A stretch of DNA of 64,000 nucleotides from Candidatus Saccharimonadales bacterium (GCA_040903985.1 JBBDUI010000002.1:326038-390037); one strand, 5' to 3'; shown: positions 26,772 to 63,266, counted from the stretch's first letter. Numbers and translations are program-made. Notes: a model not told the origin generated them from the sequence alone.

Positions 26772-26863
26772 TGGCGGAGAGGGCGGGATTCGAACCCGCG
26801 AAACGGATTGCTCCGCTTACACGCTTTCCAAGCGTGCTCCTTCAGCCTCTCGGACACCTCTCC
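26772..26863 (-). tRNA. tRNA-Ser (anticodon GGA), CCA encoded
   Basis: The reverse complement folds as a type II tRNA: acceptor GGAGAGG/CCUCUCC, anticodon stem CACGC/GCGUG, loop UUGGAAA, long variable arm, T-loop GGUUCGAAUCC. Confidence 0.85.
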
Positions 26864-49023: not shown

Positions 49024-49045
49024 ATTAAAGAGTCGAGCACCACAG

Positions 49046-49133
49046 CGGAGGGAGTGGGATTCGAACCCACGATTCCGGGTTACGGAATACTGCTTTTCGA
49101 GAGCAGCGCCTTCAGCCGCTCGGCCATCCCTCC
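49046..49133 (-). tRNA. tRNA-Ser (anticodon CGA)
   Basis: Reverse complement GGAGGGAUGGCCGAGCGG... with anticodon stem CUGCU/AGCAG, loop CUCGAAA, long variable arm, and T-arm GUGGGUUCGAAUCCCAC. Confidence 0.8.
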
Positions 49134-49192
49134 GCTCTAATGCTTACAACCTACAGTTTAAAAGCAAACGAACTTAAAGTCGAAACCTTAAA

Positions 49193-49588
49193 CTACTTAA
49201 TCTCTGGGTACTTATCCGGCTTTGTCTCGAAATACTCTATCCAGGGACTGTCGTTCGGCACCGACACCTGCTCGATCCAGATTGACTGCACAAAGCCGCC
49301 TTTCTTCCTTAGCTTTGCTTCATGGAGCTCGACAAACTTAGCCCTATCATCGCTCCTCAGCCCTTCAACTAGCGCATCGATAACCAGCTGGACGTCGGCC
49401 AGCTCCTCCAAGAAATCGTCTTGATCGCTAGCTGCCGAGATTTCCTGCGACTCCTCATTAAGCTTTTCCGTCAGTTTAGCCTGTCGTTCAGCTCCCTCTA
49501 GCACTCGATACTTAACCTCGCAGCCCTCATCCTGCATCGCATCTAGTATCTTATCTCTGATTACTTTCCCGAAGTAAAATGTTCTCAT
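49193..49588 (-). CDS. MazG/HisE-like nucleoside triphosphate pyrophosphohydrolase domain protein
   Basis: EELADVQLVIDALVEGL is a typical NTP-PPase metal-binding helix. 131 aa. Confidence 0.5.
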   Translation of the reverse strand: MRTFYFGKVIRDKILDAMQDEGCEVKYRVLEGAERQAKLTEKLNEESQEISAASDQDDFLEELADVQLVIDALVEGLRSDDRAKFVELHEAKLRKKGGFVQSIWIEQVSVPNDSPWIEYFETKPDKYPEIK

Positions 49589-49814
49589 AGCAGCTCCTTG
49601 CAGGCATTATACATATTTTCACTTCGTAAAAGATCAGGTTCGAATCCGCTATCAAAGATAGCCATAGAATTAAAAATACCCTCTAACGAGGGCAGTGATT
49701 GGCTGTTTGCCCAGACAAAACGATACTGTTTTGTCTGGAGAAGGAAGACAAACCGAAAGCTGAAAGTAAAACAGCTTCCGCTGTTTGTACGGAAGCTATA
49801 GGTTTAGTCTGACG

Positions 49815-49891
49815 TGGTGTCCTCGGCAGGATTCGAACCTGCGGCCTTTGGCTCCGCAAGCCAACGCTCTATCCAGCTGAGCTACGAGGAC
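49815..49891 (-). tRNA. tRNA-Arg (anticodon GCG as read), CCA encoded
   Basis: Reverse complement GUCCUCGUAGCUCAGCUGGAUAGAGCG-UUGGC-UUGCGGA-GCCAA-AGGCC-GCAGGUUCGAAUCCUGC-CGAGGAC-A-CCA. It is co-linear with E. coli tRNA-Arg(ACG). The anticodon loop reads U-U-GCG-G-A. Confidence 0.75.
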
Positions 49892-49953
49892 ACATACCCT
49901 TCATTATGCCATCTTTAATCAGTTTCTCAATCACTTTAAGCCTAAAATAGGCC

Positions 49954-50802
49954 CTACAGCTTGAGGCGTCTACTCAAACGGTCCACAGTATCCGGCTTGC
50001 GCTCCTCAAACGGAAGTCGATTCATCAGTATATCTAGTACTTGCTCTTCGGTCTTTGGTTCTAAGTTAACACTTAAGCTAGGCGAAAAACGCTTGGTTGG
50101 TATTAACTCTACAACTTGAGCGGTATCGCCCATCATACTGAAAGCCCGCAAGTCACTGAAAGAATAGTGTCTCTCACCAAGGGTAATGCCATCCTCGTAT
50201 AGCGCATATGACTCAAGGTGTCCATGGCGGCGATTCGACACGATCAGTGCCACTACACCTAAGATTACGGCAACCGCGCTAAGTACTGAGCTGAAGTTAA
50301 ACCCTCCCACTACAAACAAAGCTACCGTAACCAGAAGTCCTACGCCTCCGTAAACTAGCACCTGGCGCGAGCTACTACTGCCGCTGACCGGCTCGGCAGC
50401 CTGCCAAGAAAGCAAGGGGGCGTCGTCTGTCTGATCTACAGCCGGTGCAGTAGGATAATCTGCCGGATCGGTCGCCACCTCTTCCGGTAGTGGTTGAGGG
50501 GGTGTACCTGATGGCGATAAGGGCCGGTCTGAAACAGAGGGTACAGATGGTGTAGGAGTAAGGGGCTCGGCCACAGCGGCCGGTTCTGGAGCTACCGGTG
50601 GCTGCTGCTGCATCGCCATTTCTATCTGGGCGATCTCATCCGGCGTCTTGGGCGCGACTGGCTGAGACCCCGGAGCGGCCTCTTCTTTCACTACTGGCTC
50701 AGGTACTGGCGGCGGAGTCACTAAATCGGCCGGGCGATTTGCCGGTAGATCAGTATTGCTAGATTGAGGAGTAAATATTTGTCCGGGTCGCTGGTCTTTC
50801 AT
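49954..50802 (-). CDS. Hypothetical membrane protein with Pro-rich N-terminal region
   Basis: About 160 aa of Pro/Ala/Thr-rich low complexity, a central TM pair, and a C-terminal globular region. Confidence 0.45.
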   Translation of the reverse strand: MKDQRPGQIFTPQSSNTDLPANRPADLVTPPPVPEPVVKEEAAPGSQPVAPKTPDEIAQIEMAMQQQPPVAPEPAAVAEPLTPTPSVPSVSDRPLSPSGTPPQPLPEEVATDPADYPTAPAVDQTDDAPLLSWQAAEPVSGSSSSRQVLVYGGVGLLVTVALFVVGGFNFSSVLSAVAVILGVVALIVSNRRHGHLESYALYEDGITLGERHYSFSDLRAFSMMGDTAQVVELIPTKRFSPSLSVNLEPKTEEQVLDILMNRLPFEERKPDTVDRLSRRLKL

Positions 50803-50919
50803 AACTTGGATTATAGCAAACGCTTATGTTTTTAGCCCGCTCACTAATTAGCTTTGACTACTACTGCGACTCTAGTTTGCTTAAAATCATTGCTGTACAA
50901 TTAACTCTGACTGAGGTGA

Positions 50920-51009
50920 GGAGAGGTGGCCGAGCGGTTGAAGGCACTGGTCTTGAAAACCAGCAGGCCCTCACGGGTCTCGTGGGTTCGAATCCCACCC
51001 TCTCCGCCA
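50920..51009 (+). tRNA. tRNA-Ser (anticodon TGA), CCA encoded
   Basis: GGAGAGGUGGCCGAGCGGUUGAAGGCA-CUGGU-CUUGAAA-ACCAG... long variable arm ...GUGGGUUCGAAUCCCAC-CCUCUCC-G-CCA. Confidence 0.85.
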
Positions 51010-51086
51010 GTCGATAAGTGTTACACTTTAAAATACGGCCGAGCTGCAGCTATGCTCAATCGGAGAAGTACAGCTATCAAGCACGT

Positions 51087-51179
51087 GGAGAGGTACCCAA
51101 GAGGCTGAAGGGGCTGGTTTGCTAAACCGGTAGGGGGGAGCAATCCCCCGCGAGGGTTCGAATCCCTCCCTCTCCGCCA
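51087..51179 (+). tRNA. tRNA-Ser (anticodon GCT), CCA encoded
   Basis: GGAGAGGUACCCAAGAGGCUGAAGGGG-CUGGU-UUGCUAA-ACCGG... long variable arm ...GAGGGUUCGAAUCCCUC-CCUCUCC-G-CCA. Confidence 0.85.
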
Positions 51180-52774: not shown

Positions 52775-53122
52775 CTAAGTGGCGTTACCCTGGCTCAGCT
52801 GATCGATCACAAAGTCGACGGCAGCCCAGGATAGGAAGGCGACGATGATACCGATGATGGCGTAGAGAATAGTATTCTTAGCTCCTTCAACGGCACTGGA
52901 ATCACCTCCGGATACTACGTAGCGGAAACCACCGATGATTAGCATGATGACGGCGATGGCACCGAGTAGAGAAAGAAGGGTGTTAGCGATCGACTCAAAC
53001 ACCCCACCCGAACCGAATAAGCTATCGGCTACACCGCTGGGTTTAGTCGCATTAACCCCCCGCTCCAGGCTAGACTGAGCCACAGTATTAATAGCGCTTT
53101 GCAATATGCTGAGTTTATCCAT
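52775..53122 (-). CDS. VirB2/TrbC-like T4SS pilin-family paralog 1 (no signal peptide; possible silent/cassette copy)
   Basis: C-terminal 57 aa LGAIAVIMLIIGGFRYVVSGGDSSAVEGAKNTILYAIIGIIVAFLSWAAVDFVIDQL are identical to paralog 2. The N-terminus is hydrophilic. No RBS within 15 nt of the ATG. Confidence 0.6.
   Translation of the reverse strand: MDKLSILQSAINTVAQSSLERGVNATKPSGVADSLFGSGGVFESIANTLLSLLGAIAVIMLIIGGFRYVVSGGDSSAVEGAKNTILYAIIGIIVAFLSWAAVDFVIDQLSQGNAT
52798..52970 (-). repeat. 173-bp exact direct repeat shared by pilin paralogs 1 and 2 (second copy at 53274-53446)
   Basis: Identical nucleotide sequence at an offset of 476 bp. Encodes the conserved C-terminal double-TM hairpin. Confidence 0.8.
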
Positions 53123-53224
53123 AGTCTATGAGCCGAACTGTACGCCCGGCCGCTCCCTAGTTAATGATTAGCGAATTAACTATATTATACAATAAATTGT
53201 GCTTCATACAAAGAGTAACCGACC

Positions 53225-53254
53225 CTGGGTCGGGTCGGTTACTGACTAGCCTGG
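53225..53254 (-). terminator. Hairpin terminator after pilin paralog 2
   Basis: AGUAACCGACCC-UGGGUC-GGGUCGGUUACU, a 12 bp stem just downstream of the paralog 2 stop on the minus strand. Confidence 0.5.
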
Positions 53255-53266
53255 TAGACCAGATTC

Positions 53267-53650
53267 TTACTGAAGCTGATCGATCACAAAGTCGACGGCA
53301 GCCCAGGATAGGAAGGCGACGATGATACCGATGATGGCGTAGAGAATAGTATTCTTAGCTCCTTCAACGGCACTGGAATCACCTCCGGATACTACGTAGC
53401 GGAAACCACCGATGATTAGCATGATGACGGCGATGGCACCGAGTAGAAGGAGTAGGATGTTAGCGACTGTCTGGAAGACTCCACCGGCCTCAAACAAGGA
53501 ACTAGCTGTTCCTTCAGGCTTAACATCATTCAACTTATCGCCACCCAACTGGGCAAAGGCACTAGATGGTGTTAGTACGGCGGTAAAGAATATTGCCGCT
53601 TCTAGCAGCTTACGCTGAACGCCTTTCGAGATAGTTTGTAATTTTTTCAC
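53267..53650 (-). CDS. VirB2/TrbC-like T4SS pilin-family paralog 2 (likely major expressed copy)
   Basis: GTG start with GGAGG RBS 8 nt upstream. Own -10 TATAAT at ~53697-53702 on the minus strand. Signal peptide ending AFA-QL, variable region, then the conserved double-TM C-terminus. Confidence 0.7.
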   Translation of the reverse strand: MKKLQTISKGVQRKLLEAAIFFTAVLTPSSAFAQLGGDKLNDVKPEGTASSLFEAGGVFQTVANILLLLLGAIAVIMLIIGGFRYVVSGGDSSAVEGAKNTILYAIIGIIVAFLSWAAVDFVIDQLQ

Positions 53651-53733
53651 TTAAATTCTCCTCTTATTAGATATTCTGTTTCGATGACTTATGCTGAAAT
53701 TATAGCATAATTGCAGACATTCAAAAATCTTAA

Positions 53734-54207
53734 CTATCGGGGTCTAGAAGTTCCACCTGCACCACTATTCTCACTCTGCGACTGAGTCGTTGTTCCGCTA
53801 TTAGCTAGCTGATCGATCACAAAGTCGACGGCAGCCCAAGATAGGAAGGCGACGATAATGCCAACGATAGCGTAGAGAATGGTGTTGCGTGCGCCCTGGA
53901 CGGCATTCGAATCACCCCCAGAGACGACGAAGCGAAAGGCCCCAATTACTAGCATGATAACCGCTACCGCCCCCAGCACGAGAAGGAGTACATCGATAAC
54001 CGTCTTCACCGTATCGATCAGCTCTGGGCTATCGCCACCCATACTACACTCACTACCAGTCCAGCTACCACCGGCACCGATACAGGCCGACTCCTGCGCC
54101 GTCTGGGCATAAACCACATTCACGGTGCCTACGGTGCCGAACGCGAGCACACCCGCTACTACGATTAACATGCTAGATAGTATTTTTCTCATCCTGTCCC
54201 TTATCAT
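53734..54207 (-). CDS. VirB2/TrbC-like T4SS pilin-family paralog 3
   Basis: Signal peptide, Cys-containing variable region (ACIGAGGSWTGSECS), and conserved C-terminus LGAVAVIMLVIGAFRFVVSGGDSNAVQGARNTILYAIVGIIVAFLSWAAVDFVIDQL with a Gly/Ser/Thr-rich tail. Confidence 0.65.
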   Translation of the reverse strand: MIRDRMRKILSSMLIVVAGVLAFGTVGTVNVVYAQTAQESACIGAGGSWTGSECSMGGDSPELIDTVKTVIDVLLLVLGAVAVIMLVIGAFRFVVSGGDSNAVQGARNTILYAIVGIIVAFLSWAAVDFVIDQLANSGTTTQSQSENSGAGGTSRPR

Positions 54208-54566
54208 ACTGCACCCAGGGCAAACTGCACAATTATCTTAGCGGCAGCGGCCACCACTACCCCGACCAGAGAATAGATGATAGCCTCTCGGGCTCGCTTA
54301 GTCCGGTCCGGGCTACCCCCAGAGGTAGTGTAGATAAATCCGGCGACAATGATTACTACCACCGCTCCGATACCCATCACCCACAGTAGTAAGTCAGTAA
54401 TCGTATCGATGATACCAAGCACGGCATTTTGGTCAGCACTCTCACACTCCGCCCGATTGGGGTTATGCTGACAGACTATCTCCTGAGCTGACTGAGCTAA
54501 CGCCGGAGCTGCTCCGCTCAACATCATAACGAGAATTAGTCCGGTACTTATAATTGTCTGTTTCAT
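54204..54566 (-). CDS. VirB2/TrbC-like T4SS pilin-family paralog 4 (divergent)
   Basis: Signal peptide ALA-QS, Cys pair in the variable region, and a double-TM C-terminus: AVVVIIVAGFIYTTSGGSPDRTKRAREAIIYSLVGVVVAAAAKIIVQF. Confidence 0.6.
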   Translation of the reverse strand: MKQTIISTGLILVMMLSGAAPALAQSAQEIVCQHNPNRAECESADQNAVLGIIDTITDLLLWVMGIGAVVVIIVAGFIYTTSGGSPDRTKRAREAIIYSLVGVVVAAAAKIIVQFALGAV

Positions 54567-55063
54567 AGGTTATTTATCACAAAGTTTACGATAGTATAGG
54601 CCAGCACGCTAACCAATAGGCCGACTACGGCATAGAGGATAGTATTACGCGCGCTCTTCACTCCGTCCGGGCTACCGGCGGTAAAGACGAATTTGATCCC
54701 ACCGATGATAATGAAGACGGTAGCCAGCGCGCCAGTAATGACGAATACGATGTTAAGCACGCGGTTAAGAGCATTCTGATCCGCCTCAACATCCGGTATG
54801 CCTAGATCGTCTGCACTGCCCAGCGTACCAATATTAGCTGCTCCCGTACTGTCGACTCCGTTCTTATCTTCACAGAAGTCCACGCTATATCCCGGATATG
54901 GAGCTGGCTGTGGCACAGTCGTTCCATCATTACACTGCAGATCATCAGCATACACGACCGAAACACTCAGGTGCATCGTGAATGTAAGGATAACACTAGA
55001 GATCAATAGGAATCCGAAGACTCTAAGATCATGCGACGAGTAAATACCTTTTATAAAGTGCAT
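54563..55063 (-). CDS. VirB2/TrbC-like T4SS pilin-family paralog 5
   Basis: Signal peptide, Cys pair (CNDG...FCEDK), and conserved C-terminus IIIGGIKFVFTAGSPDGVKSARNTILYAVVGLLVSVLAYTIVNFVINNL. Confidence 0.6.
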   Translation of the reverse strand: MHFIKGIYSSHDLRVFGFLLISSVILTFTMHLSVSVVYADDLQCNDGTTVPQPAPYPGYSVDFCEDKNGVDSTGAANIGTLGSADDLGIPDVEADQNALNRVLNIVFVITGALATVFIIIGGIKFVFTAGSPDGVKSARNTILYAVVGLLVSVLAYTIVNFVINNL

Positions 55064-55417
55064 TTAGAATAGCCCCGCAACGAAGCCCACTAACGTACTG
55101 GCTAGAATCGCTATTACTAATCCTATCAGGGCATTAAGTAGTATCTTCTTTGCACTCTCGACAGCCGACGAGCTACCGCCGGAGGTGATGTAGCGGATAC
55201 CGCCGAAAATAATGAAGATTACAGCTAGTAGCCCAGCCAAGCGAATCGTTATATCCATGACGTTAGCTACTACTACCCAAAGATTATTAATATCCTGAAA
55301 GACTACCTGGCCTCCGTCACACTCTAGGCCGCGATACCAGTTAGGAAAGCCAAGGAAGTTGCTTGTACTCGGACACACTGCAGCAAACGTGTTTAGCAAA
55401 GGCTCAAAGTAGCTCAT
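55064..55417 (-). CDS. VirB2/TrbC-like T4SS pilin-family paralog 6
   Basis: Conserved C-terminus LLAVIFIIFGGIRYITSGGSSSAVESAKKILLNALIGLVIAILASTLVGFVAGLF. Weak N-terminal signal. Confidence 0.55.
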   Translation of the reverse strand: MSYFEPLLNTFAAVCPSTSNFLGFPNWYRGLECDGGQVVFQDINNLWVVVANVMDITIRLAGLLAVIFIIFGGIRYITSGGSSSAVESAKKILLNALIGLVIAILASTLVGFVAGLF

Positions 55418-55882
55418 CTATAGTATCCCTCCCGGAATTACGAAGTTAAGGATAGCCGCCATAAAAATAAACAGCAGCAGAGCCTCAAAAGCTTCCGTTA
55501 TCCGCTTTTTAGCGTGCGCCATACCTTCTGGGTTACCGGAAGAAGTGATGTACTGCACCCCACCAACCGTGATCATGAGGGCAATTACCAGGCCTACTCC
55601 ACCGGCTAAGAAACGAATGATCCAGCCCAAGTAGACAATAATCGGGTTAGTAGCTGCGTCGTCACCTCTAGGAACACAATTCTCCCCGTCCAGACCTACA
55701 CTGACATGTATCTCGTCATTTGCACAATGGTCGGCTATAACTGGAGCTACAGATAGTACCCCGATAAGGAGTATTACCCCAGCCAAAGAGGCGATACATA
55801 GTAATTTAAATTTGGCTCCGTTATTTATTTTTCTCATAGATTTAAGCAAATTATATAAGGTACTAAGTATTTCTACAACCAT
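55418..55882 (-). CDS. VirB2/TrbC-like T4SS pilin-family paralog 7 (first gene of array)
   Basis: Signal peptide, Cys pair (HCAND...ENCVP), and a double-TM C-terminus LVIALMITVGGVQYITSSGNPEGMAHAKKRITEAFEALLLFIFMAAILNFVIPGGIL. Confidence 0.55.
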   Translation of the reverse strand: MVVEILSTLYNLLKSMRKINNGAKFKLLCIASLAGVILLIGVLSVAPVIADHCANDEIHVSVGLDGENCVPRGDDAATNPIIVYLGWIIRFLAGGVGLVIALMITVGGVQYITSSGNPEGMAHAKKRITEAFEALLLFIFMAAILNFVIPGGIL

Positions 55883-55909: not shown

Positions 55910-55938
55910 TTGACATTTATAAGCACAGGTGTTATAGT
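55910..55938 (+). promoter_or_regulatory. Sigma-70 consensus-like promoter for the plus-strand T4SS operon
   Basis: TTGACA, 17 nt spacer, TATAGT. Lies in the divergent intergenic region between the pilin array and ORF 55978. Confidence 0.5.
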
Positions 55939-55977: not shown

Positions 55978-57099
55978 ATGCCTAACCCTAGCCAAGAGCA
56001 ACCACAGTTATTTCCGCTCGAACATGACAACCCTGGTGTAATAGCGCAACTTGAACAACCTCCTGCCACCGCTAATTATGAAACTACGGATAGAATACGG
56101 CAGATAGACCCCCGCACTGAGCAGGACTCCGATTCCATAGGCAGCTCTAGCGGGCTGCTAGATAAGCTCCGCAGTAACAAAACCGCCGCCGTATCTGCAC
56201 TCGGCGGGGCCGTAGTAGCGACCATTCTCTTCAATATGAGCAAGGGCAACGATGAGCCGGGGATCCGCAACACCGTGGAAGCGTCGGGACCAGCTGATAG
56301 TCTAGACCCTGAAGCTACTAGTACGCAGCCGGAGGGTGGGAATACTAGTGTGTCACCACCGACAGAGAGTGGTGCAATTGATCCTGCTCCTGTCTTTAGA
56401 GACCGCTACGAAAGCCCTATAAGCGGTAACTCTGCTCCACGTGAAACCTGGATTCAGCTATGGCGCATTGAGACAGATCAGTTAGCCGGTCCTAGCGCTA
56501 AAGAAACCGGCACTCTTTCGTATGTCGATAGCACTACGGCCGATCTTAAGGAAAGAGTCGGACTAGAAAGTACCCCAGAAAACCCGCAAGCACGACCAGA
56601 TACTATAGAAATAGCTGAAAACGTAGCCTACCTCTATGAGTATGAGGGGCGCACTATAACGATTGATCGGCCCGCAATCTATGGAATGCACTTTGCTCCA
56701 AAAGATGACGGTAGTTTTGAGGCTCAGTGGAGCTGGAACGCCACTCATGAAGCGTACGATAACTACACTTTGCTTTTCCCTCTTGATGGAGACATAGAGC
56801 AATTTACCGTTACTGGTGAAGATAGCGATGTTCGTTGGTTTACTCAAGAAGGAGCCCGACTACTCGGCCTCTTCTATACTGACGGAAGCGAAGAAGCGAG
56901 GCTATCGCAGGTGGTTGCGAACACCGACGAGAGTTATTTGCGACGCGAATCGATATCTAATCAAACACCTCGGCTTGACCTAGGCGTAGCCGAAACTAGC
57001 GAACACGCTACAATTTGGGATGCTTGGGATTCACTTGAGACCAAATACCCGCAACTAGTACCAGTAGAACTTTCCGAAATCTCAAACTTCGCAAAATAA
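55978..57099 (+). CDS. T4SS-associated bitopic membrane protein (possibly VirB8/TcpC-like); hypothetical
   Basis: Cytoplasmic Pro/Gln-rich N-terminus, single TM (AAVSALGGAVVATILF), then ~270 aa extracytoplasmic domain. This topology and size are typical of VirB8/TcpC-like proteins. No sequence motif confirmed. Confidence 0.4.
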   Translation: MPNPSQEQPQLFPLEHDNPGVIAQLEQPPATANYETTDRIRQIDPRTEQDSDSIGSSSGLLDKLRSNKTAAVSALGGAVVATILFNMSKGNDEPGIRNTVEASGPADSLDPEATSTQPEGGNTSVSPPTESGAIDPAPVFRDRYESPISGNSAPRETWIQLWRIETDQLAGPSAKETGTLSYVDSTTADLKERVGLESTPENPQARPDTIEIAENVAYLYEYEGRTITIDRPAIYGMHFAPKDDGSFEAQWSWNATHEAYDNYTLLFPLDGDIEQFTVTGEDSDVRWFTQEGARLLGLFYTDGSEEARLSQVVANTDESYLRRESISNQTPRLDLGVAETSEHATIWDAWDSLETKYPQLVPVELSEISNFAK

Positions 57100-57122: not shown

Positions 57123-59543
57123 GTGAAGGGGCTTCATATTATACTACCTCAAATGAGCTCTACACTTTCCGAAAAGCTAAAAACAAATAAGTTGTTCCGA
57201 CTTTTTGTCGGCACTATATTTATACTAAGCACTGTCTTTTTGTTTCAGCTCGGTACTCCCGATACAGTCTACGCCGGCCGAGGGAATGAGTGCCATGACG
57301 CCTATGACCGCACACAACCCAGGGGAAACCCCAATAATACCGCTGACTACGTACTGGGCTACGTTCAATCTTATCCGGATAAAGCCCCTGAAGTAGTTTG
57401 CGGTACGGATGCACAAGGCGATGACATACGGGTAGCCCTCCTGCAGTGGGGGCCTGACGCTGGTAGCTGGCTTGGTGACAGTTCTCTGCCTGATGCTGCG
57501 GCACGTTACCTATTCTGGGCCTGGACTAGAGGAGAGGACCATGCCTCATTTATCAGATACAGCTATGCGACTAACCCGCCCGAAGTGGCTAATATTGTTT
57601 ACTTAAACCGCAACCTAACCGTTAGCATAGACGGCAGTAGCCAACGAGTGGATGATCCAGTCGGCCTCTTGCCACTTATTGAGCAGACCGAAGAGAATGG
57701 TAATGAGGGGGTGGGGACGAACCCGGACGATGTGACCAGTGAAACACCGGGACCAGAGTTAGAGGAAGACGAAGAGTGCGTCAATGAGGGTGGACTCTTC
57801 GGTGTCCTTATGTGTGATGCGTTAGTTTGGACCTTAAGTGCTCTAGAGTCTGTCCAGAGCTTAATTGTTGAAGTTCTCTTTGAAACTAAACCACTCATAG
57901 TCGGAGACACTAGCGATCCCCTATTTCAGATATGGGGAAACATTAGGGATGTGGCCAACATTCTTCTAGTAGTAGCTTTCATGTTCGTCATCTACTCCTT
58001 AGCCGTATCGGTAAATATTGATGCTTACTCAGTTAAAAGGATTGTTCCGCGACTACTAGTTGCCGCAGTATCGATTCAAGCTTCTTATTTTATATCAGCT
58101 ATCTTCATAGATATGACGTCTATTCTAGGGGCGGGAATTCAAGGATTTACAGACATAGCCATGGATGATGTAAGAATATCTCTCGGTAATGCCGAGGGAG
58201 CCGGCGGGTTCATCGCCCTCGGGTCTATTGCTGGACTAGCAGTAGCTGGAGGAATATTGCTCGCTCCATCTATAGGGTTAGTGGCTGTTATAATTCTATT
58301 AGTAGTGCTCGCAGCATTTGTAGTGGTAGCAGCTCGTGACCTACTCATTCTGATGTGCGTAGTCTTATCGCCCATCGCCTTCCTGGCAAACCTACTACCA
58401 AATACCGAGAAGTGGTTTAAATTCTGGTGGTCCAACTTTGCACGACTTCTGTTTATGTACCCTTTCATGATTCTCATGATTCAAATCGGAAACCTTGGTG
58501 CCTATATAGCGCTAAGTGCAAATCGTGAAGCTAGCTTTTTGGCTCCATTTATGGCACTCATCATGCAGGGTGTAGCTATCGGGTCGATCCTCCTCGCCTT
58601 CAAGGTTGGGGGGTCTCTTCTCTCGGTTACAACCAGTGGATTCCAGAAGTTCGCTAAGGGTGGAGGCGGTAGGAGCAAAGACGGTAAGGGGTTGCGCGGC
58701 AAAATTGGTCAACGTGCTCGAGAACGCCGAGGTGAGTACGCTACCGGCACAAGAGGTAACGCCTTTACCCGCGGCATTACTAGCCCAGCCACCGCATCGG
58801 TTATGCCTAGTCGTTTCCGCAATCAGTCAAGAGCTCAAGCCCTTAGTGGCTTTAACCTTCAACGAGGCGAGGCGGCCAAAGCACTGGAAGCTGAAGGTCA
58901 CGATGCCGATGCACTCAACACTTTTGCTAGGTATGGTGAATCGACCGATAGTTTTAAGCAAGGGTTAAAAGAGCTCCGCTCTAGTACTCGAATTAACCGG
59001 GAGACAGGCGCTGTTGAGTATAAAGACGCAGATGACATAGATAGAGATAACGCTAAAGCCGACAAGCTTGCCAATATGTCGCACCACGTAGGAAAGCGTG
59101 CATTCCAAGCAGCTGCACTTAAGCAGGTGGCCGACATGGGCTTTGCCGATAATGAAAGTTTCGAATCTGTCAGAGGCCTACTTCAAGACAATCCCACCCT
59201 AAGCCAACAAGTACTTACTCCGGCAGCTGTCGGTGCTAAAAAGGCCGGGCGCATTGATCAGTGGAAAGAGTACGGCCCTCTCGAGGCAAAGGATATCGTG
59301 GCGGGTATGGGCACGAAGGATATCGTCGAAATGAAACCGGTCAGCCTGAAAGACGCTGAACTGGCCAACCAGTTTAGAGATCAAGCAAGTGTGCCGAAAA
59401 GTGCTGCGCGCAAAGCATTATCAAGTGCACTGGGCTCAGCCAGTGGTATGAGCGCCAAACAACACGAAGAGTTTGAGCGTGTATTAGGACCCGACCTATA
59501 TGCCAAGTTGGTGGAAGAAGCTGAAGAAGGATGGAAGCGGTAG
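57123..59543 (+). CDS. VirB6/TrbL-like polytopic T4SS channel protein (PrgH/TcpH-like)
   Basis: 806 aa. Signal-anchor, ~220 aa extracytoplasmic domain, at least 6 TM helices in the 250-560 region, and a ~250 aa hydrophilic C-terminal domain. This is the Gram-positive-type VirB6 architecture. Located 3 genes upstream of VirB4. Confidence 0.6.
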   Translation: MKGLHIILPQMSSTLSEKLKTNKLFRLFVGTIFILSTVFLFQLGTPDTVYAGRGNECHDAYDRTQPRGNPNNTADYVLGYVQSYPDKAPEVVCGTDAQGDDIRVALLQWGPDAGSWLGDSSLPDAAARYLFWAWTRGEDHASFIRYSYATNPPEVANIVYLNRNLTVSIDGSSQRVDDPVGLLPLIEQTEENGNEGVGTNPDDVTSETPGPELEEDEECVNEGGLFGVLMCDALVWTLSALESVQSLIVEVLFETKPLIVGDTSDPLFQIWGNIRDVANILLVVAFMFVIYSLAVSVNIDAYSVKRIVPRLLVAAVSIQASYFISAIFIDMTSILGAGIQGFTDIAMDDVRISLGNAEGAGGFIALGSIAGLAVAGGILLAPSIGLVAVIILLVVLAAFVVVAARDLLILMCVVLSPIAFLANLLPNTEKWFKFWWSNFARLLFMYPFMILMIQIGNLGAYIALSANREASFLAPFMALIMQGVAIGSILLAFKVGGSLLSVTTSGFQKFAKGGGGRSKDGKGLRGKIGQRARERRGEYATGTRGNAFTRGITSPATASVMPSRFRNQSRAQALSGFNLQRGEAAKALEAEGHDADALNTFARYGESTDSFKQGLKELRSSTRINRETGAVEYKDADDIDRDNAKADKLANMSHHVGKRAFQAAALKQVADMGFADNESFESVRGLLQDNPTLSQQVLTPAAVGAKKAGRIDQWKEYGPLEAKDIVAGMGTKDIVEMKPVSLKDAELANQFRDQASVPKSAARKALSSALGSASGMSAKQHEEFERVLGPDLYAKLVEEAEEGWKR

Positions 59544-59654: not shown

Positions 59655-60497
59655 ATGGCTGTATATAAAGTACCCCAAGATGTCGAAGCCGAGGATAAGC
59701 TCCTCGGCCCTCTAACTTTTAAGCAGTTTATCTTTCTGCTGATTGCCGGTGGGGCGGCTATGTTTGCCTGGCTGCTCTTCACTATTCAGCCGGTACTCGC
59801 CATCATCCCTCTGCCCATCATACTAATCTTCGGTGGTCTAGCTGTCTTTCGTCGTGAGGATCAACCGGTTGAACGTTACCTCCTATCGTTCTTCAACTAC
59901 ACACTGCGCCCCCGGGTGCGACTATGGAGCACGGAGGGATACTACGACCACCTAGTCATTACGGCCCCTAAGACCATGGCCACACCCGCTCTAAAGCAGG
60001 ATGTTAGTCAGGTTCATGGCCAGCTCGAGAAGCTAGCGCAAATTGTCGATACTCGTGGCTGGTCGGTTAAACAGCCCAACATTACACTGCCGAACCAAGT
60101 CGGTCAGGGCGACGACCGTCTCTTTCTCCCTCAGGTAGAGGCTCCACCGGAAGAAGTCCAAGAGAGCGACGATATTATGGATGACGCCAACCCTGAAGTA
60201 GTGCAGCTCGACTCCATCCTACAACAAGAAGCCGAACGACAACGCCAAGCTTTGCTGGAGCGAGTCAAACAGCAGGCTAGCGAACCTAGCCATTCCACAG
60301 CCACCACTGAGCCCCAAGCCGGCTCTGCAGAGCAAGAACGTGTAGCACCAGCGGTAGAGCCGGCTCCATCTAGCGGCAATACATCTGATATAATGAACCT
60401 ATCTGACCAGCTGACCGTCAGCCAGATTCAAGATCAGGTTAATCGTCAGGCTACCGACCAAAAACTAGAAGAGGGTGAGGAGATAAAACTACGCTAA
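59655..60497 (+). CDS. VirB3/PrgI-like small membrane protein with extended C-terminus; hypothetical
   Basis: Two closely spaced N-terminal TM helices (FIFLLIAGGAAMFAWLLF, LAIIPLPIILIFGGLAVF), located immediately upstream of the VirB4 ORFs. C-terminus is Gln/Glu-rich. Confidence 0.4.
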   Translation: MAVYKVPQDVEAEDKLLGPLTFKQFIFLLIAGGAAMFAWLLFTIQPVLAIIPLPIILIFGGLAVFRREDQPVERYLLSFFNYTLRPRVRLWSTEGYYDHLVITAPKTMATPALKQDVSQVHGQLEKLAQIVDTRGWSVKQPNITLPNQVGQGDDRLFLPQVEAPPEEVQESDDIMDDANPEVVQLDSILQQEAERQRQALLERVKQQASEPSHSTATTEPQAGSAEQERVAPAVEPAPSSGNTSDIMNLSDQLTVSQIQDQVNRQATDQKLEEGEEIKLR

Positions 60498-61369
60498 TGC
60501 CACCGAACAACACGCCCAACCAGCCCCAATCACCGGCTACACCCGAACCGGCTCCAGCTACCCCTCAGACTCAGATCAACCCCAGCGCTGCACCCTTAGG
60601 TCCGCCGCCACGCTCGATGCCTAAAACCGCTAAGCCAGCGGTTAAAAAGAAGTCTGACAATACCGCTCAGAAGAGTCTACTTATCTCTGAGATCCGGGAC
60701 GGCATGGTAGTGATGAAGGACGGCTCGATGCGAGCGGTCGTGATGTGCCAATCAATCAACTTCGACCTAATGAGCCCACAGGAAAGGGAAGGGATAGAGT
60801 ACTCCTACCAGGGCTTCTTAAACTCACTCTACTTCCCAGTCCAGATACTAATCCGAAGCCAGCATATTAACCTCGACGGCTACATGGAGCGATTAGAAGC
60901 AATCAGACGAGACCAGGACAACATTCTGCTCGGACTGCTGATGGAAGATTACATCACCTACGTACGTTATCTGGTAGAAGCGGCCAACATTATGGACAAG
61001 CAGTTCTACATCGTGGTGCCTTACTACCCTAATATGCTGAACAAAGAGGGGATAGCCAGCGGCGCCCAGAAGTTCTCCGAACTCTTCAAACCGAAACAAG
61101 AAGGAGTAATCACTATTAACGAGACCGACTTCACCAAGGCTAAGCAGGAGTTGACGCAGCAGGTCCGGGTGGTAGCTAACGGCCTAAACCAACTAGGGGT
61201 TAAATCCATACCCCTAAACACCCAGGAGTTAATCGAGCTTTACTATAACGTCTACAATCCAGTCACTGCTAAACAGCAGCCGCTAACTGACGTCGGTGAC
61301 CTAGATGCATCGATCATCGGTAAGGGTGACGGCCAAGCAAAACAGGTATTCCCAGGGGGCGGGGCATAG
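60497..61369 (+). CDS. VirB4/TraC N-terminal-domain protein (Pro-rich leader plus CagE_TrbE_VirB-like domain); possibly the 5' part of a split virB4
   Basis: LLISEIRDGMVVMKDGSMRAVVMCQSINFDLMSPQEREGIEYSYQGFLNSL matches the conserved VirB4 N-terminal block (kdGs...G.dfe...see). The ORF ends with TAG 1 nt before the ATG of the ATPase ORF, at a G-run. Confidence 0.55.
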   Translation: MPPNNTPNQPQSPATPEPAPATPQTQINPSAAPLGPPPRSMPKTAKPAVKKKSDNTAQKSLLISEIRDGMVVMKDGSMRAVVMCQSINFDLMSPQEREGIEYSYQGFLNSLYFPVQILIRSQHINLDGYMERLEAIRRDQDNILLGLLMEDYITYVRYLVEAANIMDKQFYIVVPYYPNMLNKEGIASGAQKFSELFKPKQEGVITINETDFTKAKQELTQQVRVVANGLNQLGVKSIPLNTQELIELYYNVYNPVTAKQQPLTDVGDLDASIIGKGDGQAKQVFPGGGA

Positions 61370-61370
61370 T

Positions 61371-63266
61371 ATGGGTATATTTAGTAAAAAAACCGATCCG
61401 GTCAGCCTAGCCGATGAGCAGAAGCGGCGGGAGCAGCTGGAAGTAGAGGAGCAGTTCCGCGAAGGCATCACCGGGCTGCGCGACTTTATCGCCCCTTCCA
61501 GCCTAGAGTTCGAATCATCCCAGATGAAAATCGGCACCCGCTACGCCCGCACCGTCTACGTCTACGGTTATCCGCGTCAAATCTATACCGGATGGCTCTC
61601 GCCAATTATTAATCTAGACGAAGCGCTCGATATCAGTATGTTTATCTATCCGGTCGAAAGTAAAGTCGTACTCGACAACCTCCGCAAGAAGGTTTCCCAA
61701 TTAGAAGCTAGTATTCAGATCAACGCTGAGAAAGGCCGGGTGCGTGATCCCGGACTAGAAGCCGCTATCCAAGATGCGGAGGAGTTACGGAGTCGCCTGC
61801 AGGTTGGCGAAGAGCGCTTCTTCCGTTTCGGGCTCTACATCACAATGTATGCCGACTCCCTAGAAGAGATGACCTACATCCAGCGCAAGATCGAGGGCAT
61901 CTTCGGCCAAGAACTGGTCTACACCAAGACGGCGACAGTTCAGATGGAGCAGGCCTTCAACTCGACCGTACCCCAGCTAACTGATCAGCTACAGATCAAG
62001 CGTAACCTCGACACCGGTGCACTCTCTACCACCTTTCCCTTTACTTCAGCTGATCTATCTCAGGAAGAGGGGATACTCTATGGCATTAACATGCATAACA
62101 ACGGCTTAGTCATCTTCGACCGTTTCTCATTAGAGAATGCCAATATGGTCGTCTTCGCCAAGTCCGGTGCCGGTAAGAGCTTCACGGTTAAGCTCGAGGC
62201 TTTGCGTAGTCTTATGTTTGGTCGCCAGGTTATCATCATCGATCCGGAAAACGAGTATGAGCGTCTGTCCGATGCAGTGGGGGGCAGCTACATTCACCTT
62301 AGCCTCAACTCCGATACTTATGTGAACCCTTTCGATTTACCGCAAGTAACCGACTCGGAAGAGGCAGACAACGCCCTGCGGGCTAACCTCATCACCCTGC
62401 ACGGTATGCTACGCCTGATGATGGGCAGCACTCGGCAGCAGGAAGATGGCAGTATGAGCTCCGGCATTACTGCCGCCGAAGAGGCCGACCTCGATATGGC
62501 CCTAATTAACACCTACGCGGCACGCGGCATCACTAGTGATCCGCTCACCCACAGCGTCGAGCCCCCCACCATTAACGATCTATACGAAACCTTAGTTAAC
62601 ATGTCGGGCACCGGACCTAGCCTGGCTCAGCGTTTGCGTAAATACACCCAAGGCACCTTCTCCGGTATCTTCTCAAATCAATCTAACGTCACTCTGGATA
62701 ATAATTTCGTCGTCTTCAACATCCGTGATCTTGAAGACGAATTACGCCCCGTCGCCATGTACATCGTCTTAAACTATATCTGGAACCGCGTGAAGTCCGA
62801 CCAGCGCGAACGTTTCCTGATCGTCGATGAGGCCTGGCAGCTGATGAAGCACGAAGACTCAGCCAACTTCCTCTTCTCGGTCGCCAAGCGCGCCCGTAAG
62901 TACGCCCTGGGACTAACCACTATCTCACAAGACGTAGAGGACTTCTTAACTTCCCGTATGGGTCGCGCTATCGTCTCTAACTCCAGTATGCAGGTACTGC
63001 TCAAGCAGGCTCCTTCGGCCGTCGACCTAGTAGCTGACACCTTTAAACTCACTAGCGAGGAGAAAAAGCGGCTTAGCCAATTCCCGGTCGGCCAGGGATT
63101 ATTCTTCGCCGGCTCCAACCACGTCCACATCCGGATTGAGGCCAGCCCCACCGAAACTCAGCTCATCACTACCGACCCACGCCAACTAGCCGCTATGCAG
63201 GCCATCACTGAAGGTCAGGATGCCGCCCAAGCCGCCTCAGAAGCCGCTAAAGAGCCGGAACTGTAA
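61371..63266 (+). CDS. VirB4-family T4SS ATPase (TraC/TrsE/PrgJ-like)
   Basis: Walker A VVFAKSGAGKSFTV, Walker B FLIVDEAWQLM, and C-terminal motifs TISQDVEDF and SNSSMQVLLKQ. Start set at MGIFSKK (61371), 2 nt after the upstream stop. Confidence 0.85.
   Translation: MGIFSKKTDPVSLADEQKRREQLEVEEQFREGITGLRDFIAPSSLEFESSQMKIGTRYARTVYVYGYPRQIYTGWLSPIINLDEALDISMFIYPVESKVVLDNLRKKVSQLEASIQINAEKGRVRDPGLEAAIQDAEELRSRLQVGEERFFRFGLYITMYADSLEEMTYIQRKIEGIFGQELVYTKTATVQMEQAFNSTVPQLTDQLQIKRNLDTGALSTTFPFTSADLSQEEGILYGINMHNNGLVIFDRFSLENANMVVFAKSGAGKSFTVKLEALRSLMFGRQVIIIDPENEYERLSDAVGGSYIHLSLNSDTYVNPFDLPQVTDSEEADNALRANLITLHGMLRLMMGSTRQQEDGSMSSGITAAEEADLDMALINTYAARGITSDPLTHSVEPPTINDLYETLVNMSGTGPSLAQRLRKYTQGTFSGIFSNQSNVTLDNNFVVFNIRDLEDELRPVAMYIVLNYIWNRVKSDQRERFLIVDEAWQLMKHEDSANFLFSVAKRARKYALGLTTISQDVEDFLTSRMGRAIVSNSSMQVLLKQAPSAVDLVADTFKLTSEEKKRLSQFPVGQGLFFAGSNHVHIRIEASPTETQLITTDPRQLAAMQAITEGQDAAQAASEAAKEPEL

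Follow-up and report, generated by a model that had tools for sequence, protein, structure and literature searches.

A conserved tandem array of pilin-like genes beside the type IV secretion locus of a Candidatus Saccharimonadales genome

The stretch of DNA analysed here, a 64,000-nucleotide portion of a Candidatus Saccharimonadales genome (GCA_040903985.1, JBBDUI010000002.1:326038-390037) that is hereafter called the window, carries a tandem array of seven small genes, g1 to g7 (Table 1), next to the genes of a type IV secretion system (T4SS). This array was interpreted, with moderate confidence, as the pilin array of the Saccharimonadales T4SS, made up of non-redundant, specialised subunits among which g2 would be the abundant one. 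This interpretation is founded on the conserved gene order, the conserved N-terminal heads, the tight coupling of g7 to g3 and the apparent essentiality of each of the corresponding genes in a cultured relative, Southlakia epibionticum ML1. The seven genes would fall into six subunit types of ancient origin and fixed position, not interchangeable with one another, and every type would have a conserved exposed head of its own. The array as such is already known, and its detection in the window is a correct rediscovery of a published feature; the g1 duplicate, the identical tract shared by g1 and g2, the conversion of the packing module, the positional orthology and the candidate major subunit described below were not found in the literature searched and are incremental additions to it.

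Order, orthology and heads of the pilin genes

Seven consecutive minus-strand genes with products of 115 to 166 aa had been predicted by a first-pass annotation of the window, and all seven open reading frames (ORFs) are found at 52775-55882, each exactly at the coordinates claimed. The products of g1 and g2 are identical to the NCBI proteins WD467_01995 and WD467_02000 from an uncultured Candidatus Saccharimonadales metagenome-assembled genome (MAG). In the case of g7, the alignment with its orthologues, as well as a second assembly in which the gene is annotated with 139 aa, indicates that translation probably starts at Met16 (window position 55837), giving a product of that length.

A set of 80 loci around relatives of the VirB4 ATPase was fetched (numbered L002, L003 and so on), the closest relatives all coming from Saccharibacteria MAGs, and their ORFs were searched with a hidden Markov model (HMM) of the C-terminal module of the pilins. 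Altogether, 164 pilin ORFs were recovered in 37 loci plus the window, and all but one of them lie on the strand opposite to VirB4, upstream of a VirB6-like gene. The array has an equal place and orientation in the 37 related loci, and its linkage to VirB4 was kept in all of them; since homologous arrays recur in this manner, the array is not the product of chance. The 10-kb flank cuts many arrays, and counts by position were made on the 20 arrays that are complete, in which five (seven arrays), six (eight), seven (four) or eight (one) copies were counted. The occurrence of the array in related genomes, which the first-pass annotation had left as a point to be checked, was established in this way, as was the variation of its copy number among these genomes.

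Regarding orthology, which was examined by clustering and by reciprocal best hits and proved to be positional, positions 1 to 6 are one-to-one reciprocal best hits with those of L002 and L003, in which VirB4 is 86-87% identical to that of the window, and positions 1 and 2 are still reciprocal best hits in most genomes at ~70% VirB4 identity. The pilins g2 to g7 are 40-53% identical to their counterparts in L002, and g1 reaches 63% over a shorter alignment; among the neighbouring genes, the identity to L002 is 32% for the VirB6-like protein, 30% for the 373-aa protein, 44% for PrgI and 49% for ComFC. It was observed, then, that the pilins diverge no faster than the neighbouring envelope genes, and no sign of exceptional divergence was seen. 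The terminal type, to which g2 and g1 belong, has the most conserved module between genomes (60-87%).

The N-terminal heads had been described as hypervariable and mutually unrelated. It was verified instead that they are paralog-specific, with a conserved signature for each position across genomes; the heads within the array are indeed dissimilar in pairwise comparison, with the exception of g1 and g2, which are similar in this part (Smith-Waterman z=7.8). At position 1, g7 combines a signal peptide, a Cys pair and the C-terminus ...FVIPGGIL (55418-55450), and the corresponding C-terminal motif, ...(N/Q)(F/Y)(L/I)(I/V)PGG(I/L)(F/L), was detected in 19 of the 20 complete arrays and at no other position. 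The position-2 motif C..FLGFPxWYxGL..C occurs in 17 of the 20; the head motif of g6 is C...FLGFPNWYRGLEC, and g6 is leaderless in the clade of the window, L002 and L003, where the signal peptide of this pilin was lost. Position 3 is marked by the signature LG..D.GIP (LGSADDLGIP in g5). In Saccharimonadales, the position-3 pilin is mostly leaderless and ~95-100 aa long; the same clade gained a leader, and a Cys-containing insert of roughly 35-50 aa, which in g5 measures ~50 aa and holds a Cys pair, is found in the window and L002 and is absent in L003. Position 4 is marked by a short Cys-Cys loop, the head of g4 being of the form Cys-x8-Cys and accompanied by a signal peptide. At position 5, g3 presents a signal peptide, a CxGxGGxWxxGxC head and a Ser/Thr/Gly-rich C-terminal tail, the head being common to seven aligned genomes (the window, L002, L003, L004, L005, L014 and L050). 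The terminal type is recognised by ...LFGxxGIFQTVxNILLF...

Signal peptides had been attributed to five of the seven proteins; according to calls that are heuristic only, g3, g4, g5 and g7 have a clear one, that of g2 is weak, and g1 and g6 have none. Additionally, Cys pairs are present in the variable parts of five pilins (g3 to g7), and not of three as had been counted.

The assignment of all seven genes to one operon proved unlikely. The genes from g7 to g3 are tightly arranged, with successive spacings of 0, 0, -4 and -4 nt and with g4 overlapping both g5 and g3 by 4 nt (ATGA), but g2 and g1 stand behind spacers of 83 and 144 nt, respectively, each of which contains a TATAAT hexamer read by eye, and a terminator-like hairpin follows g2; it is because of these spacers and this hairpin that a single operon is not favoured. 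Of the 20 arrays listed, 19 have a spacer of 36-144 nt before the last gene, which reaches 50 nt or more in 17, and the upstream genes mostly abut or overlap. The Shine-Dalgarno sequence of g2, AAGAGGAG, is strong. Considering its conservation, its separate spacing, its TATAAT box, this strong Shine-Dalgarno sequence and the terminator-like hairpin, g2 is probably the major subunit and was taken as the candidate major pilin, and the genes from g7 to g3 are translationally coupled and probably encode low-abundance specialised subunits (minor, tip or base).

A previous study described the locus of S. epibionticum ML1, in which VirB4 (0008), a gene for a ~290-aa protein (0009), PrgI (0010), VirB6-like genes (0011 and 0013), six divergent PF18895 genes, Hsp20 (0020), ComFC (0021) and a tRNA-Ser gene are arranged in this order, and in which transposon-insertion sequencing (Tn-seq) classed all six genes of the array, SEML1_0014-0019, as GD/ES/ES (Wang et al. 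2023, PMC10633639). The window shows an equal gene order, including the Hsp20, ComFC and tRNA-Ser genes, similar sizes and an equivalent spacer of ~83 nt before the last pilin gene. It differs from ML1 in having seven pilin genes instead of six, the extra one being a leaderless partial duplicate of the terminal gene, and in having one large VirB6-like gene and the 373-aa protein where ML1 has two large VirB6-like genes. The array of the window is interpreted as the orthologue of the essential SEML1_0014-0019 array, the essentiality being known from ML1 alone.

Pilin family, predicted fold and the g1/g2 duplication

Membership in the T4SS pilin family was confirmed with the Pfam model PF18895 (T4SS_pilin), since all seven proteins, searched at their whole length, score above its gathering score of 26.6 bits (27.1-48.6 bits); the same model is matched by 66 of 66 aligned relatives. 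The more specific claim of a VirB2/TrbC-type hairpin is supported by PF18895, by the architecture and by the T4SS context, but direct homology to the classical VirB2/TrbC pilins is borderline and unproven. In fact, the gathering score of PF04956 (TrbC/VirB2 pilin), 27.9 bits, was not reached, the best score being that of g2 (27.1 bits), followed by ~15 bits for g5 and g6, and the PF04956 search of g1, g3, g4 and g7 returned no match; 20 of the 66 relatives match this model at E<0.01, the best at 1.5e-6. When the 66-sequence family alignment was compared by hhalign with eight MPF_T VirB2/TrbC proteins annotated on plasmids, the result was not significant (E=0.13, probability 0.5%); in topology, however, the columns brought together by the alignment are equivalent.

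It was also found that all seven proteins weakly match the family of the pilin-like conjugal transfer protein Mbov_0395 (NCBIfam NF045849), which is found in Mycoplasma integrative and conjugative elements (ICEs), with 21.1-30.5 bits and E values from 2e-7 to 2e-4. All of these scores are under the 40-bit cutoff, and the pilins appear to be weakly related to this family without being members of it; such a match was not found in the literature searched. A recent preprint reported PrgF_B2 as a pilus-forming VirB2-like hairpin protein of a monoderm conjugative T4SS (December 2025, bioRxiv 10.64898/2025.12.18.695078). Taken together, the weak Mycoplasma ICE link and the PrgF_B2 report favour the inheritance of these pilins with a monoderm-type T4SS over their capture from diderm systems. 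The NF045849 match by itself hints that the Patescibacteria pilins share ancestry with the pilin-like proteins of monoderm T4SSs.

The presence of one shared C-terminal module was corroborated by the alignment, in which ~70 residues comprising two hydrophobic segments and a short loop align in all seven proteins, with only four non-Met columns invariant across them. The loop motif proposed in the first-pass annotation fits fully in g1, g2 and g6 and differs by one Gly in g3 (GA for GG), but the fit is loose in g4, g5 and g7. An AlphaFold2 model of g2, built on the 66-sequence alignment, has a mean predicted local distance difference test score (pLDDT) of 86 and consists of a leader helix (residues 2-26) and two hairpin helices (58-87 and 92-126) connected by a loop of four residues that is flanked by R84, D91, E95 and K98. 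The predicted architecture is VirB2-like, with a leader in most of the proteins, two transmembrane (TM) helices and a short charged loop. Fold searches were non-discriminating, a hairpin of the g2 type being indistinguishable from any other helical hairpin, and a PDB sequence profile search with the family alignment returned only a designed coiled coil (E=2.9).

The last two genes of the array share a perfect direct repeat of 174 nt, which covers only the conserved module formed by TM1, the loop and TM2. The repeat extends to 193 nt at 97.4% identity, and the identity then drops sharply upstream; even at a background identity of 90%, the chance of an identical run of 174 nt is ~1e-8. At the protein level, the identity between g1 and g2 is 72% for the whole sequence and 92% for the module. 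Moreover, g1 has an in-frame stop two codons upstream of its ATG and no leader, and L002 and L003 have only one terminal gene, to which both g1 and g2 correspond. On these comparisons, g1 is a partial copy of the terminal gene, truncated at the 5' end and specific to the lineage; the copy would be very recent, or else gene conversion would have maintained its identity. An identical region of 6.3 kb exists in a second NCBI assembly, which makes an assembly artefact behind the repeat less likely, though only to a certain degree, as the two MAGs were built from short reads and probably stem from a single study.

The similarity reaches g3, in which ~58 nt at the 3' end (53804-53861) are nearly identical to g1/g2. 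In the window, as in L002 and in L003, the position-5 and terminal pilins of one genome share 89-97% identity in their TM2 halves. Between the position-5 orthologues of the window and L002/L003, the identity of this half is only 68-69%, their heads still being orthologous. Since the TM2 halves are closer within a genome than between orthologues while the heads stay orthologous, this pattern indicates that the C-terminal packing modules of g3 and g1/g2 are under concerted evolution, by gene conversion.

The divergent secretion genes and their surroundings

The five plus-strand genes that diverge from the array are listed in Table 1, and the T4SS genes are found within 100 nt to 7.4 kb of it. 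The location of the array opposite a VirB6/VirB3/VirB4 locus was supported by HMM for VirB3 (PrgI, PF12666) and VirB4, but for VirB6 by topology and synteny with S. epibionticum only. The 806-aa protein has ~7 hydrophobic segments at residues 220-500 and a large hydrophilic C-terminal domain, and its syntenic counterparts are SEML1_0011/0013, for which the closest matches by structure carry the labels T4SS protein and TrbL/VirB6. Searches of the 373-aa and 806-aa proteins against Pfam and NCBIfam returned no match, and the VirB6 label accordingly rests on topology and synteny. The probable start of VirB4 is Met23 at 61371, since its homologues align from residue ~23 and this start removes the overlap with the 290-aa ORF. 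The latter gives weak matches to TrsD/TraD and to the N-terminal portion of models of the VirB4 family, and it is highly conserved, with 70-74% identity in L002 and L003. The 373-aa protein has a counterpart with 30% identity in L002 and no detectable one in L003, L004, L005 and L014; in S. epibionticum, the region matching its gene contains the second VirB6-like gene and a protein of 278 aa, which is not essential and matches an NTF2-like domain.

On its other flank, the array is followed by genes for Hsp20, a ComFC-type phosphoribosyltransferase and tRNA-Ser. Three tRNA-Ser genes and a tRNA-Arg gene are clustered just past ComFC, the tRNA-Ser isoacceptors CGA, TGA, GCT and GGA and tRNA-Arg(GCG) being located at 49045-51179 and 26772-26863. 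The tRNA and Rfam scans of the window detected these five tRNAs only, none of them related to the array.

Table 1. Pilin array, repeated tract and divergent T4SS genes, with coordinates counted from the first nucleotide of the window
Feature	Coordinates	Strand	Size or sequence	Description
g1	52775-53122	-	115 aa	Leaderless, lineage-specific partial duplicate of g2; PF18895 42.8 bits
g2	53267-53650	-	127 aa, GTG start	Terminal-type pilin; PF18895 42.2 bits, TrbC 27.1 bits
g3	53734-54207	-	157 aa	Position-5 pilin; PF18895 34.5 bits
g4	54204-54566	-	120 aa	Position-4 pilin; PF18895 48.6 bits
g5	54563-55063	-	166 aa	Position-3 pilin; PF18895 47.1 bits
g6	55064-55417	-	117 aa	Position-2 pilin; PF18895 41.8 bits
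g7	55418-55882	-	154-aa ORF	Position-1 pilin; PF18895 27.1 bits
Perfect direct repeat, g1 copy	52797-52970	-	174 nt	TM1-loop-TM2 module
Perfect direct repeat, g2 copy	53274-53447	-	174 nt	Partner of the g1 copy
Terminator-like hairpin	53214-53243	-	12-bp stem, 7 GC pairs	Between g2 and g1
Promoter-like site	55910-55938		TTGACA-17-TATAGT	Before the 373-aa gene
373-aa protein	55978-57099	+	373 aa	Single TM; first gene of the divergent T4SS operon; no family match
VirB6-like protein	57123-59543	+	806 aa	Polytopic; assigned by topology and position
PrgI-family protein (VirB3-like)	59655-60497	+	280 aa	PF12666 55.4 bits
TrsD-like protein	60497-61369	+	290 aa	Resembles the VirB4 N-terminal domain; NF041427 TrsD E=6.8e-7, below cutoff
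VirB4-type ATPase	61305-63266	+		PF19044, PF12846, PF03135

Alternative interpretations and relation to known systems

A recent survey identified 441 VirB2-like arrays of 2-11 genes in 383 Patescibacteria assemblies, mostly from Microgenomatia and Saccharimonadia, found most Patescibacteria T4SS clusters to be without a relaxase, and proposed that such arrays provide antigenic or host-range versatility, an idea repeated in a 2025 review (Quinonero-Coronel et al. 2025, PMC12102498; review, PMC12857230). The description of seven pilin genes as a non-canonical arrangement, given in the first-pass annotation, is right with respect to classical T4SSs, among which it is unusual, but not with respect to Saccharibacteria, in which it is the published norm. 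That annotation suggested a repertoire of adhesive or antigenically distinct subunits, and a repertoire is also suggested in the survey; in this reading, the genes would be interchangeable major pilins whose different exposed heads would serve antigenic variation or the matching of host strains. The strong differences between the heads of paralogs agree with this idea, as do the copy number of 5-8 among genomes, the duplication of the terminal type in single lineages (g1/g2 in the window, two copies in L052 and L057) and the arrays of VirB2 paralogs that Bartonella and Anaplasma possess, cited as precedents in the survey (PMC12102498). However, position-specific orthologues and head motifs are kept across ~70% VirB4 identity, and the divergence of the pilins does not exceed that of the VirB6-like protein, PrgI or ComFC; all six S. 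epibionticum genes appear essential, which is unexpected for redundant alternatives, and gene conversion homogenises the conserved module and not the heads, the opposite of variation of the pilE/pilS type. A repertoire was therefore considered rather unlikely.

Another interpretation is that the hairpins stay in the cytoplasmic membrane as a part, chaperone or gate of the VirB6/VirB3/VirB4 translocon, with the heads touching the wall or the host and with no filament being formed. It is in agreement with the absence of any observed filament, the generic nature of the hairpin fold, the non-significant homology to classical VirB2 and a survey of Gram-positive plasmids in which many systems have several small two-TM proteins and only one of them was modelled as a pilus (bioRxiv 10.64898/2025.12.18.695078). 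Nevertheless, three independent HMM libraries or models describe the proteins as pilin-like (PF18895, PF04956 at a borderline level and NF045849), labelling data on PrgF_B2 support the extrusion of the hairpin in a monoderm T4SS, and heads capable of forming disulfides, together with Sec leaders, point to extracytoplasmic exposure, so that this interpretation was judged quite improbable. Far less credible, to the point of being nearly dismissed, is a two-TM family of the holin, bacteriocin or immunity-like kind that merely adjoins the T4SS. Single members do show matches to assorted TM families, including a holin family, but these are far under the cutoffs and differ between paralogs, the linkage to VirB4 was retained in every pilin-bearing locus, and in S. 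epibionticum the genes share their essentiality with the T4SS. Such an identity was rejected on this genomic context and on the inconsistency of the sub-threshold matches.

The preferred reading, that of fixed and specialised pilins, would proceed as follows, largely by analogy with VirB2 and PrgF_B2. The pilins would enter the membrane by Sec (g1 and g6 without a leader), with the N- and C-termini outside and the loop (R84, D91, E95 and K98 in g2) inside, and the VirB4 ATPase would then extract them from the membrane. The extracted pilins may stack on the VirB6-like platform into a tube with its lumen lined by the loop, which would cross the wall of the monoderm cell toward the bacterial host, and the variable, often disulfide-bonded heads would be displayed on the outside of the tube. 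The packing modules of g3, g2 and g1 would remain similar to one another through gene conversion. A more detailed form of this proposal, held only tentatively and somewhat doubtful at present, is a heteromeric T4SS filament of a monoderm epibiont, composed of five ancient, fixed minor subunits with disulfide-stabilised heads and one major subunit that is sometimes duplicated, in which gene conversion keeps the modules of the last positions compatible.

Several points weigh against the preferred reading. No pilus of such a system has been seen in any Patescibacterium (PMC12857230), and the grounds for dividing the subunits into major and minor ones are their spacing, their conservation and promoter-like sequences that were identified by eye; a consensus promoter scan, in which sites were no commoner than in shuffles, flagged no minus-strand promoter upstream of g2 or g1. 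Additionally, the Tn-seq essentiality of the upstream genes could be a polar effect on the terminal gene, the topology of g1 and g6 is uncertain because they have no leaders, and the number of terminal-type copies is variable (one, two or three), which would be compatible with some element of a repertoire. If the paralogs are fixed and specialised, each of them is predicted to be individually required; S. epibionticum is amenable to genetics, and both this requirement and the major-subunit idea can be examined in it.

The system of the window is not of a new kind, but the comparison sharpens the question of what the Patescibacteria T4SS does, the pilin array being its oddest feature; the role of this conserved and essential system is regarded as an open question (PMC11665869). 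The locus of S. epibionticum was reported to have no recognisable coupling or relaxase proteins (PMC10633639); a VirD4-like component is listed for it in a review (PMC12857230). Like the arrays of the survey mentioned above, that of the window consists of tandem genes of the PF18895/PF04956 type near an MPF_FATA-like virB4, an organisation that is especially frequent in Saccharimonadia, but the maximum identity within an array was 54% in that survey, compared with 72% overall and 92% over the module for g1 and g2 (PMC12102498). In architecture and context, the pilins also resemble PrgF_B2 of pCF10, a two-TM hairpin with a short charged loop that is encoded near a VirB6-like gene in a monoderm T4SS of the MPF_FATA type and that was proposed to stack on a VirB6 pentamer. 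The PrgF_B2 systems contain only one functional copy, in contrast to the seven copies with elaborated heads in the chromosomal array of the window; they are conjugative and include a relaxase and a coupling protein. The classical pilins, such as Agrobacterium VirB2 and RP4 TrbC, share the leader, the two hydrophobic helices, the short loop, the linkage to a T4SS and the borderline PF04956 match, but they belong to diderm systems with one gene per locus, and the profile-profile comparison with them was not significant. Finally, a purely functional analogy can be drawn with type IV pili and the pseudopili of type II secretion systems, in which paralogs likewise combine one hydrophobic packing module with different exposed domains, and an abundant subunit is expressed separately beside an operon of low-abundance subunits, although their fold and assembly machine are unrelated. 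If the heteromeric filament is real, it would be the first pilus of a T4SS in which labour is divided as it is in type IV pili, and a likely conduit or attachment device by which Saccharibacteria exploit their hosts.

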